From: Gammaproteobacteria bacterium
Lineage (GTDB): Bacteria > Pseudomonadota > Gammaproteobacteria > Eutrophobiales > Eutrophobiaceae
Direction: 5' to 3'
Assembly: GCA_965207165.1 (NCBI GenBank)
Contig: OZ242265.1
Span: 2,473,225-2,537,224, forward strand
DNA length: 64,000 nucleotides
Shown one piece after another: positions 8,601 through 11,600 of the stretch. The number at the start of each line of letters is the position of its first letter. Positions within the stretch are counted from its first letter, which is position 1. Made by a program: the position numbers.

Positions 8601-11600
8601 CATCCCATCCCAGGGTGTCATCCCTGTAATCTGCAGCCTGCCCCCTGGCTCCGCCGGTAGCGGCTGACCCCTTTTTTCGCACTTGGGACAAGACACAGAA
8701 ATCAACATCAATCTCCGCCGCATGCATCAACTCACGCATGTTATGGCAGGAAGCGCCAACCCAGGACCCGGACGGCAACGGCCGCCCCGTTAATCCCAGT
8801 AGACGTTCGCCGGTCAGGTGGACGCCGGCGGCGCCGGTTTCCATGGCAAACTCAGGAGTGGAATTGACTATGAGTTGCGCACCATGGCTCCTGCACGCGT
8901 CAACCATCTCCATGACTGCAGGTCTATGATTATGCGCCGATTTGCTCCTGAACTGCACCAGCTTCACGCCGGCCGCCAGGTATTGGCGTAACTCATTCAT
9001 GAAGGCTGGAGAATAACTGTCCAGGTTCGGGGTGATGAGATACACTGCCGGCAGTTTGCAGGCGGTAATAATCCCCTTGTTGGCGGCGGGGAAATCCGTT
9101 GCCGCCAGGGAAAAAATATCCACCCACTGCGTTGCCTGCCCTTCATTACCCCGCAACTGTCCAGTCCAGCCATGCACTTTCCATACGCTGAACCGTAACG
9201 GTTTGCCCGGATAATCGTAATCGAACGAGATAAGCGGTGAACAGTCCCCGGCATTAATGTTGAGTTCCTCGAATAATTCCCGCTTCAGGGCCTGAAGCAG
9301 GGTTTCGCCATCCCGGACCTTGCCGCCGGGGAATTCCCACATGCCGCCGAGATGGGAATGGCACGGGCGCCTGGCCACCAGCACCTTGTCCCCGGCGGCG
9401 TTGTAGACTACGCCCAGGGCGATATGATCTCTGGCAGGCATGGGGTTAATAATTACGAATTACGAATTAGGAATTAGGAATTAGGAATTAGGAATGAATG
9501 TGCTGCGTTGGGCGGCAGTTTTTCGCACACAAGAACAAACCGTACAAGGACATAACACCCCCAATTCGTAATTCCTAATTCGTAATTCGTAATTGATTTC
9601 TAATTGTCCGTCAGGACCTGTATTCGGCGTTAATCGTGACGTAATCATGGGACAGGTCGCAGGTCCAGTAGCAGGCGCTTGCAGTTCCCTGGTTCAGGTC
9701 GATGCGTATCTCGATTTCATCATCCTGCATCGCGGCTGTTCCCCGTTCTTCGGTATAGTCTTTTGCCCTGGCGCCGTTTTCAACGATACAAACCTCGTTC
9801 AGGTGCACGGAAATCCTGCCTATATCCAGGTCCACGCCCTTGCTTCTCCCGATTGCTGCCAATATTCTGCCCCAATTGGGGTCGGACGCATATAATGCAG
9901 TCTTGACCAGCGGAGACGTGGCCACCGCGTCGGCTACAGCAGTACATTCTGTTTCACTCCGGGCGTTATCGACCCGGACAGTCACAAATTTCGTGGCGCC
10001 CTCGCCATCCCTGACAATCTCCTGGGCCAGACGGGTACATAGTTCCGTTATCAGGGCTTCCAGACGGTCGTACACCGGGCCGGCTTCACCAACCATCCTG
10101 CCGGCGCTATTTTTGCCGGTGGCGACCAGGACGCAGGCATCGTTGGTGGAGGTATCGCCGTCAACACAGATCCTGTTGAACGATTCATCAACAGCGGTTT
10201 TCAGTATGCGGTCCAGGGCGCCCCGGGATACGTTGGCATCGGTGGCGATAAAGGCAAGCATAGTGGCCATGTCCGGTTTAATCATGCCGGCGCCCTTCGC
10301 TATGCCGGTTACGGCAAACGCTTCGGGACCAACACCCGTTGCGGTACTGCCTTTCAGCCGCGTATCGGTGGTCATGATGGCCCGCGCACAATCGGGCCAG
10401 GCGTCATCCGTCAACCTGTCGAACAGTTTGGGCAAGGTACGACATATCTTATCGACCGGCAGGTATTCCCCGATTACCCCGGTGGAAAACGGTAATACGG
10501 CATCCGCTGCGTACCCGGCCAGGCCGGCCAGGGCCTCGCAGACCCGGGTTGCATCGTTGATGCCCTGCGCACCTGTCCCTGCATTGGCATTGCCGGCGTT
10601 GACAAGCAGATATTTCACGGGACCATGCTGCAGGTGCTTCCTGGCGACGGCAACCGGCGCCGCGCAAAACCGGTTGCGGGTAAAGACTGCGCTGACTCTG
10701 GCGCCGTCGCAGATCTCGAACAAGGCCAGGTCGTCCCTGGCCGCGCCATATAGCCCTGCCGAGCAGGCAGCAAGCCTGATGCCGTCAACAGGCGAGAGAT
10801 CTGTGGAATGTGTTAATCCGGCTGCCATGTTTTAACCATGGAGATCACGTTGATTTCATCCATGGCCGCTATGACGAACTTGTCGTCAGTTGAGTTTGCC
10901 ATGGCAGAACTTGAATTTCTTCCCGGAACCGCAGGGGCAGGGCTCATTACGGCCGATTTTCTTTTGATCGCGTATATAGGGTTTTTGCTGCTGGTTCTCA
11001 CCAGGTTTGTCCATGGCGCTGGGCGCGTCCGGATGATTGAACTGCATTTGCGCGGGCCTGGGCCGCCGTTGCAATACCTGTTCATCCTGATCCTCCCTGA
11101 CCTGTATTTTCGCCAGTATGGTAACGACGTCGTATTTGATGTTTTCCAGCATATCGCCAAACATGGAAAATGCTTCCTTCTTGTATTCCTGCTTGGGATT
11201 CTTTGCCGCGTATCCGCGCAACCCGATGCCTTGCCGCAGATGGTCCATCGCCACCAGGTGTTCTTTCCAATGCCGGTCCAGTGTGTCCAGCATCAAACCC
11301 TTTTCAACCCTGCGCACCAGATCCGGCGGCAGGTCGGCATGTCTTGTTTCCACTTCTTCGGCAACGGTCCCGGTAACCTTTGCGGTCAGCGCTTCTTCAT
11401 CCAGGGATGCATCCTCGTCCAGCCATTCCTGTATCGGCAAATGCACATTCAAGTCATTGGCCAGCGCATCCGCCAGGTCAGCGGTGTTCCACATTTCGTC
11501 CTGGCTGCCGGGGGGAATATGGTTTGCAAAAATACCTGTTACGACATCTTCCCGCATCGTCCGGATATCGGTAGAAACGTCGTCTCCTCCCAACAACTCG

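Follow-up and report, generated by a model that had tools for sequence, protein, structure and literature searches.

Bacterial tandem heptamer repeats were recognised decades ago and are the commonest long simple-sequence repeat (SSR); their origin, spread across phyla and function are unexplained. Mazel et al. reportedly described cyanobacterial short tandemly repeated repetitive (STRR) sequences in 1990, and Mrazek et al. are said to have defined heptanucleotide long simple-sequence repeats, LSSR(5-11), in 2007. Small dispersed repeats (SDR) of Nostoc were reportedly found by Elhai et al. in 2008 to be often embedded in tandem heptameric repeats, and a transposase-free spread was suggested. 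According to the summary of Mrazek 2007 in PMC4679880, heptamers are the most abundant long SSR and possibly arise by polymerase slippage. Arrays of GGGAATC in Xanthomonas and of GGGGA(T/C)T in Nostoc are intergenic, include some inverted pairs capable of forming stem-loops, and occur between the same gene pairs in related species with extensive variation in length and sequence (Rehm et al. 2015, PMC4692102). Direct repeats of TAACTGA are common to marine Beggiatoaceae, Cyanobacteria and Bacteroidetes and are located just upstream of start codons; nearly all sets were direct, with one indirect repeat in 170 (MacGregor 2015, PMC4679880). The subject of the present analysis was the heptamer AATTACG/AATTAGG, written AATTCGT/AATTCCT (AATTCST) on the opposite strand, which is found at two intergenic sites in a 64-kb stretch of a gammaproteobacterial genome (contig OZ242265.1, positions 2,473,225 to 2,537,224; hereafter the window). 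Site 1 lies between argJ and a mutT-thiE fusion gene, site 2 between rsmI and lpoA. Comparison loci and contigs carry L-numbers (L042, L110, L120 and so on).

Site 1 was interpreted as a copy of a non-coding, non-autonomous foldback repeat that is interspersed in the manner of a MITE (miniature inverted-repeat transposable element). Its arms would be AATTACG/AATTAGG heptanucleotide arrays of the STRR/LSSR type, and its core a GC-rich hairpin with a T-run, forming a portable intrinsic terminator; site 2 would be a second instance. This reading as a whole was given a probability of about 0.72. Among the intergenic heptanucleotide repeats, a class that is known but little understood, the element is a variant undescribed in the searchable literature, namely a dispersed foldback repeat with a terminator core and with arms made of heptamer arrays.

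The heptamer arrays in the window are real, intergenic, non-random and far above chance (Table 1). Tandem Repeats Finder located two period-7 arrays at site 1, with 6.4 copies and 97% matches on the left and 4.6 copies on the right, and one at site 2 (40173-40203, 4.4 copies, 100% matches at period 14). No further period-7 array was found in the 64 kb. All three arrays repeat a 7-nt unit head to tail at least three times, with 87-97% matches. AATTCST followed by AATT occurred 12 times, confined to the three arrays, against 0.07 expected from shuffles, and a three-unit heptamer pattern matched 11 times against 0.00 expected. At site 1, the arrays form arms of 35 nt (9451-9485 and 9560-9594) that are 94% complementary and separated by 74 nt, and the unit order of the right arm mirrors that of the left arm in three of four units. 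The G+C content was 52% in the core and 26% in the arms. The predicted fold reached about -58 kcal/mol on either strand (z = -6.25 and -5.9). A sequence-only reading of the window had placed the arrays at these positions, described inverted-repeat arms around a GC-richer loop and named the gene pairs argJ/mutT-thiE and, divergent, rsmI/lpoA, all of which agreed with the results; the RNA folding it had proposed as a check yielded the stable hairpin (about -58 kcal/mol, z about -6).

Site 1 occupies the whole 169-nt gap from the argJ stop (9611) to the mutT-thiE start (9441), and both genes are encoded on the minus strand. No Shine-Dalgarno sequence was present between the left arm and the mutT-thiE ATG. 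The fusion of NUDIX and TMP-TENI (thiamine-phosphate synthase) domains in a single open reading frame (ORF) was kept in all relatives.

Table 1. Coordinates of the heptamer elements, their surroundings and other features; positions refer to the window unless a comparison locus is named.
Feature	Position	Strand	Details
Site-1 left arm	9451-9495		AATTACG x2, then AATTAGG x4.4, read on the + strand
Site-1 core, 67 nt	9496-9562	+	Starts (A)ATGAATGTGC, ends ...ATAACACCCCC; related to cores of L110, L254, L266, L322, L340
Terminator-like hairpin	9501-9525	+	TGCTGC-GTTGG-GCGGCA, then GTTTTTCG; antisense to argJ and mutT-thiE
Site-1 right arm	9563-9594		AATTCGT, AATTCCT, AATTCGT, AATTCGT, AATT; reverse complement of left arm
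argJ	9611-10828	-	PF01960; stop codon 16 nt from site-1 right arm
NUDIX (mutT-like) + TMP-TENI (thiE-like) fusion gene	8428-9441	-	ATG 9 nt from left arm
Site-2 array	40172-40203		(C)ATTCCT, AATTCGT, AATTCCT, AATTCGT, AATT
Junction GGGTGCACCC beside site-2 array	40163-40172		Not a conserved palindrome
Possible decayed partner arm of site 2	40066-40100		GAATTAAG AAGCAGG AATCGAA ACGAATG...; 80-83% complementary over 18-20 nt
Bacterial RNase P RNA, class A	33783-34158	-	338 bits
Two 21-22-nt tandem duplications	29445-29484, 49412-49454		About 2 copies each; Tandem Repeats Finder
Arrays beside structured RNAs	L276 8378-8608; L264 310-780; L359 6407-6607; L345 10387-10574

The architecture of site 1 recurs with related cores at unrelated loci. 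In L254, L266, L322 and L340, an AGG/ACG array is followed by AATGAATGT-GCCGCC-loop-GGCGGC-GGTTTTTC, a spacer ending in ...GTTACGTAACAYCCCC and a CCT/CGT array, in brief an array, AATGAATGTGCCGCC...GGCGGC-TTTTT, a spacer and an inverted array. The 89-nt cores of these four loci were 87-96% identical, and their flanks were unrelated. The window core appears to be a shorter, diverged version of this core. Its identity to the cores of L110, L254, L266, L322 and L340 was 60-64% over the whole length, about 81% in the first 31 nt and 11 of 12 positions at the 3' end. L110, from a 3.8-Mb gammaproteobacterial chromosome, showed a layout like that of site 1 after kdsB, with a core end, ...GAAAAACAGCCGCCACAGGCGGCACATTC, that resembles that of the window. 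A 5' motif, AATGAATGTGC(C/T)GC...GGC..TTTTT, was common to L110, L345, L359 and the window. The core motif of the site-1 family was defined as AATGAATGTGCYGC...GGC-TTTTT, and L345, L359, L353, L344 and L361 were looser relatives of this family. The order of ACG and AGG units was mirrored between the arms of an element at a level of 0.71, compared to 0.50 +/- 0.04 between elements, and none of 2000 permutations was as high, in a test that was somewhat generous owing to some orthologous loci. The sub-family with the GCCGCC...GGCGGC-TTTTT core alone constitutes a real family. A conserved junction, GCAC-N(2-4)-ATTCCTAATTCSTAATT, with at least 120 metagenome matches was considered and rejected: at loci not selected for it, GTGC followed just 2.9% of arrays and was no more frequent than on the other side. 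As GTGC was not enriched beside arrays, the metagenome matches reflect the sheer number of arrays and are not evidence in themselves.

Within the core, the family members carry GCCGCC-loop-GGCGGC-TTTTT, so that a GC hairpin followed by T5 is found on the AATTAGG strand. This is the predicted form of a canonical intrinsic terminator, and the window copy has it on the plus strand. The only terminator site found in the window element was likewise on the plus strand (9501-9517). A role of site 1 as terminator or attenuator separating argJ from mutT-thiE, which the sequence-only reading had offered, would agree with a very stable hairpin of -58 kcal/mol between two cistrons. However, the sense (minus) strand has AUUAUUAACCCC after the stem and not a U-tract, the sole terminator-like motif is on the opposite strand, and the closest relative, L120, 96.4% identical, has a 46-nt gap without such a hairpin. 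The proposal was given up as having next to no likelihood. The orientation of the core relative to genes is not fixed, since the terminator was in sense direction in L322 and L359 but antisense to the adjacent gene in the window and L110. In L322, the terminator is directed towards dnaJ, and 5 nt separate the end of the element from the dapB ATG; in L359, it is located after a tRNA gene and faces the upstream gene. In copies located after dnaJ and tRNA genes, the core terminator probably serves the upstream gene. Most probably, the element serves no dedicated purpose at argJ/mutT-thiE; mRNA processing and antisense transcription may be affected to some extent at most. A transcript from argJ to mutT-thiE would carry a long hairpin, a plausible substrate of RNase III, and on the opposite strand the window terminator would stop antisense transcription.

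Copies of the element extend to 6-18 nt from the flanking genes. AATTAGG contains TAG, and CCTAATT and CGTAATT contain TAA; owing to the 7-nt period, such arrays provide stop codons in all three frames. ORFs reading into a heptamer array and ending at an array stop codon were observed for kdsB in L110 (7840-7884) and for a PF05635 gene in L291 (7926-7946).

The window's ArgJ had no exact match on record, and relatives of both sites were retrieved via ArgJ and RsmI homologues as syntenic contigs of uncultured Gammaproteobacteria. The number and type of units differed between close relatives, including contigs of 96% nucleotide identity (range of the contigs, 89-97.6%). L120, identical to the window to 96.4% over 13.6 kb, holds in its 46-nt gap at site 1 only a 25-nt mini-palindrome, AATTACGAATT-tct-AATTCGTAATT. 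L122 (about 91% identical) has CGTAATTCGTAATT, which overlaps the argJ stop. L121 (about 91%) has a 94-nt hairpin of a different heptamer at the exact position of site 1, TTTTTAG x4 ... CTAAAAA x4. This hairpin (11223-11313) encloses the remnant ATTACTAATTCTAA. At site 2, the array was missing from L246 (97.6% identical), L247 (95.6%) and L248, which have a short, different spacer instead. Four units were present in L363 (96.2%) in the order ACG ACG AGG AGG, versus ACG AGG ACG AGG in the window, and three in L249 (89.3%); in both contigs the position of the array was conserved and the units were changed. Considering presence or absence of the arrays and the changes of units among such close contigs, both sites are therefore polymorphic within the species. 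Site 1 can be described from these alignments as a hot spot for the turnover of heptamer hairpins. The rsmI-lpoA spacer itself (window 39984-40249, compared with L246, L247 and L248) occurred as two unrelated haplotypes, of about 265 nt when the array was present and about 110 nt when it was absent. They were distributed out of step with the overall similarity among contigs of 89-98% identity, which suggests recombination.

Purely local SSR expansion is a rival explanation. In it, both arms of a small ancestral palindrome in the argJ/mutT-thiE gap were lengthened by slippage, without any movement between loci. Heptamer slippage is a long-standing idea (PMC4679880, summarising Mrazek 2007), heptamer units were present in all relatives at exactly site 1, and the L121 hairpin at this site is built from another heptamer. 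However, slippage cannot create a non-repetitive core of 67 nt, and cores of 87-96% identity at four unrelated loci as well as the shared junction motifs in L110 are left unexplained. Local expansion without movement was considered unlikely.

Site 2 is flanked by two divergent genes, rsmI on the minus strand (start 39983) and lpoA on the plus strand (start 40250). It is tentatively viewed as a second instance and older copy, in which one array is intact and its partner has decayed. The dispersed core family has junctions similar to those of site 2, ...ACGAATGAAT... and ...CACCC-ATTCCT. The hairpin reading of this site is tentative because the fold was not significant (z = -1.3). The palindrome GGGTGCACCC reported earlier at this site is indeed present, and its counterpart in the relatives L363 and L249 reads GGATGCACCC; its perfection is therefore incidental.

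Beyond the window, the heptamer was widespread. When 185,579 species genomes were scanned for (AATTCST)x3-AATT, at least 119 stretches were returned. Among the matches listed were Nostocales, Bacteroidota, Acidobacteriota, Chloroflexota, Planctomycetota, Verrucomicrobiota, Ignavibacteria, Clostridia, a bacterium of the candidate phyla radiation (CPR) and Proteobacteria. Viral contigs contained 93 AATTCST stretches, compared to 12, 8 and 10 for the composition-matched controls ATATCST, TTAACST and ATTACST, which makes AATTCST arrays about nine times commoner than control heptamers in these contigs. The published cross-phylum heptamer TAACTGA had 54 stretches there. At loci selected for AATTCST, period 7 accounted for 431 tandem arrays and any other period for at most 99, and 133 other unit sequences were found. 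Most arrays were intergenic (226/242, 93%, at 212 loci). About 17% had an inverted partner within 300 nt, and the order ACG...CGT was found in 33 pairs versus 7 with CGT...ACG. Related contigs had 2-9 arrays each. The sequence-only reading had allowed for a motif limited to the two window sites and lacking conservation; this was clearly not the case, with arrays across phyla and at corresponding sites in relatives. Its proposal of a genome-specific interspersed or MITE-like repeat stood in the second part, through copies of the same architecture at unrelated loci, and failed in the first, the arrays being spread over many phyla and viral contigs.

Viral and prophage contigs showed up to nine AATTACG-type arrays per 10 kb, about one per intergenic gap, in L159, a 9.9-kb viral contig, and in IMGVR_UViG_3300013383_000066 (L164, L179 and L194). 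AATTCCT arrays were also observed next to structured RNA genes, namely Bacteroidales-1 (6S-like) RNA, a T-box leader and tRNA genes. Matches from human gut and rumen had conserved flanks, but these were orthologous loci beside the T-box leader and the Bacteroidales-1 RNA and were rejected as copies of an element.

Another rival explanation is a cis-regulatory role, in which the units would be bound by a protein with affinity for RNA or DNA (S1, a CsrA-like protein via GGA in AAUUAGGAAU, Csp or some dedicated factor), and translation of the gene immediately downstream would thereby be tuned. In the window (9 nt) and several other copies, the array ends 6-10 nt before a start codon lacking a Shine-Dalgarno sequence, and AGG units present GGA every 7 nt. 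The ACG/AGG orientation was commoner on the sense strand (107 versus 61 downstream of genes), and a similar proposal was made for TAACTGA repeats (PMC4679880). Against this, presence and unit number vary among contigs of at least 95% identity, and both orientations are found. Arrays are also located after stop codons, after tRNAs and beside 6S-like and T-box RNAs, and ACG units have no GGA, yet are freely interchanged with AGG units. A regulatory array of this kind was judged quite improbable.

The foldback reading agrees with the usual description of a MITE in part. Terminal inverted repeats were found (35 nt, 94%), with arms that are tandem arrays and not a fixed sequence, and a conserved interior was found at unrelated loci in four contigs, which belong to genomes other than the source genome. 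A classical MITE, or a REPIN, the hairpin-forming doublet of repetitive extragenic palindromic (REP) sequences, would be mobilised in trans by a transposase of the DDE type or by a REP-associated tyrosine transposase (RAYT) or other IS200-type Y1 enzyme. Inverted ends, small size, intergenic position and multiple copies would fit such an element; the variable arrays at the ends, in place of a fixed terminal sequence, and the lack of the REP-like GTAG head do not. Neither a REP-type head nor GTAG was present in the window element, and no recurrent neighbour resembling a Y1 transposase was found near arrays, although the whole genome was not searched. This is in line with the earlier statement that the repeat differs from REP sequences, bacterial interspersed mosaic elements (BIME) and enterobacterial repetitive intergenic consensus (ERIC) sequences. 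Two further results count against a classical MITE or REPIN and equally weigh on the preferred reading of a dispersed foldback repeat. No target-site duplication was found at the ends of the window copy, L254, L266, L322 or L340, the AATT at both ends being part of the unit, and the 1234 ORFs lying up to 3 kb from arrays at 332 loci included no transposase and, apart from PF05635, no recurrent neighbour. Trans-mobilisation by a transposase was thus regarded as very improbable. For the preferred reading, the same results mean that the argument for mobility is that of copy distribution alone.

Other points also weigh against the foldback reading. Common descent of the middle part of the element is uncertain, because the window core is just 60-64% identical to the best-conserved copies. 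Copies in the source genome were countable within the 64-kb window only, where there are two loci. Some heptamer units are kept at site 1 in all four relatives, and instead of an insertion there may have been a large ancestral element that was deleted several times. Parsimony would speak for a gain in the lineage of the window, yet long palindromes are easily lost, and the change at site 1 may have gone either way. Elsewhere, about 83% of arrays had no inverted partner within 300 nt, which makes the hairpin form the minority state. Rfam gave no match to the window element at gathering scores or at E <= 1. A BLAST search of the element against plasmids gave one trivial match, with the arrays masked by the low-complexity filter. 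Segments of 0.9-1.4 kb between inverted arrays in L042 and L131 were considered as an autonomous partner and rejected, as they contained ordinary genes.

A mechanism consistent with the foldback reading can be proposed. The arms would grow, shrink and change units by slipped-strand mispairing. As AATT is self-complementary, the arms also share direct repeats, which would favour deletion across the hairpin, and a partial deletion of this kind could turn an allele like that of the window into one like that of L120. The arms would be kept complementary, and DNA or RNA would fold into a stem of about 37 bp that draws the flanks together. With the flanks joined by the paired arms, the insert may be tolerable in a 169-nt intercistronic gap. 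Whole copies would spread by a process for which no transposase was found to account.

PF05635 was the only recurrent array neighbour in the ORF survey. It is a small protein of about 120 amino acids, which Pfam assigned in 9/9 examples to PF05635, the 23S rRNA intervening-sequence protein. Avd binds nucleic acids and is the partner of the reverse transcriptase of diversity-generating retroelements (DGRs). PF05635 is also the family of this DGR accessory protein (PMC10053308). A PF05635 gene was located exactly between inverted AATTAGG/AATTACG arrays in L086 (Segetibacter, 769-1220), L195 (a viral contig, 613-1035) and L098 (Nostoc, 1621-2070). At AATTCST-selected loci, 7 of 11 PF05635 ORFs abutted an array. 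An independent set was fetched irrespective of arrays, using subsets of a 9-protein alignment as query, and comprised 39 deduplicated loci (within L370-L417). Arrays with units of 7 or 8 nt were present on both sides of the gene in 19 of them, on one side in 11 and on neither in 9. Gaps adjoining the PF05635 gene held an array in 36 of 56 cases, versus 8 of 29 other gaps at the same loci (odds ratio 4.7, p = 0.0026). Among array pairs with the same unit, 13 were inverted and 3 direct. The units differed from locus to locus, and two neighbouring PF05635 genes on one contig had different units. Related PF05635 pairs (60-90% identity) had the same heptamer in 5/9 cases versus about 8% of distant pairs, which is partly an effect of locus choice, and one pair of 95% identity had different units. 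Inverted arrays around PF05635 genes are not described in the searchable literature.

Heptamer-array hairpins may be cargo-less relatives of a widespread and so far undescribed class of small cassettes in which a PF05635 gene lies between inverted arrays of a cassette-specific heptamer, with the protein recognising the arrays or helping to copy them, possibly via an RNA intermediate. This idea is put forward as a possibility on the doubtful side. Searches with tblastn found no PF05635-like ORF in the window, and the site-1 core has just 67 nt; as the window has no such gene, its status as a cargo-less derivative is a hypothesis and not a finding. Alternatively, heptamer hairpins are merely a favoured landing site for small inserts. 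If true, PF05635 cassettes would explain the scatter of heptamers across distant phyla, a question open since 1990, and the link to Avd-like proteins, if it holds, would provide heptamer repeats with a first candidate protein partner that can be tested.

The locus combines arrays as arms of a dispersed hairpin, a portable terminator, and gain, loss and reshuffling of units within a single species-level population. Heptamer hairpin elements break assemblies, introduce hairpins of high stability into operons, place stops in all three frames at gene ends and can supply or abolish terminators.

Several known systems share features with this element. Drosophila foldback (FB) transposons have long inverted arms of short tandem repeats and a variable middle, and are kilobase-sized, some with a transposase. 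The likeness is one of design only, FB transposons being eukaryotic. The 23S rRNA intervening sequences of Leptospira and Coxiella have a terminal inverted-repeat stem with a PF05635 ORF in the loop. This layout matches the PF05635 genes between inverted heptamer arrays, whereas the window element has no ORF and is located outside rRNA. To our knowledge, stems of heptamer arrays have not been described for these intervening sequences. MITEs, Correia/NEMIS elements, ERIC sequences and REPINs are, like the present element, small, non-coding, intergenic and bounded by inverted repeats, with hairpins in the transcript and strain-variable presence, and may carry terminators or promoters. The element differs from them in having arms of variable tandem 7-mers and no fixed terminal sequence, target-site duplication or cognate transposase.

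Closer likenesses were found among heptamer repeats. SDR are reportedly short hairpin-forming units inside heptamer arrays; they are cyanobacterial and 21-27 nt long, whereas here the core has 47-95 nt and lies between inverted, not direct, arrays in Gammaproteobacteria. The GGGAATC and GGGGA(T/C)T repeats are likewise intergenic heptamer arrays with inverted pairs and with variation in length and sequence between relatives. They are G-rich and were studied as quadruplex formers with no conserved core described, whereas AATTACG/AATTAGG is AT-rich and cannot form a guanine quadruplex. As with TAACTGA, one heptamer occurs across distant phyla without a visible transfer mechanism, is found near starts lacking a Shine-Dalgarno sequence (9 nt in the window), has units with stop codons and is of comparable abundance in viral contigs; the unit is another one, and a hairpin form with a core exists here. 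The described STRR units do not include AATTACG/AATTAGG, and full-text searches for arrays of this heptamer returned nothing relevant in the searchable literature. STRR sequences and heptanucleotide LSSR have in common with the present element tandem 7-nt units, a nearly always intergenic position, many unit sequences per genome and variable copy number. In contrast to them, a complementary pair of arrays here encloses a conserved core with a terminator.

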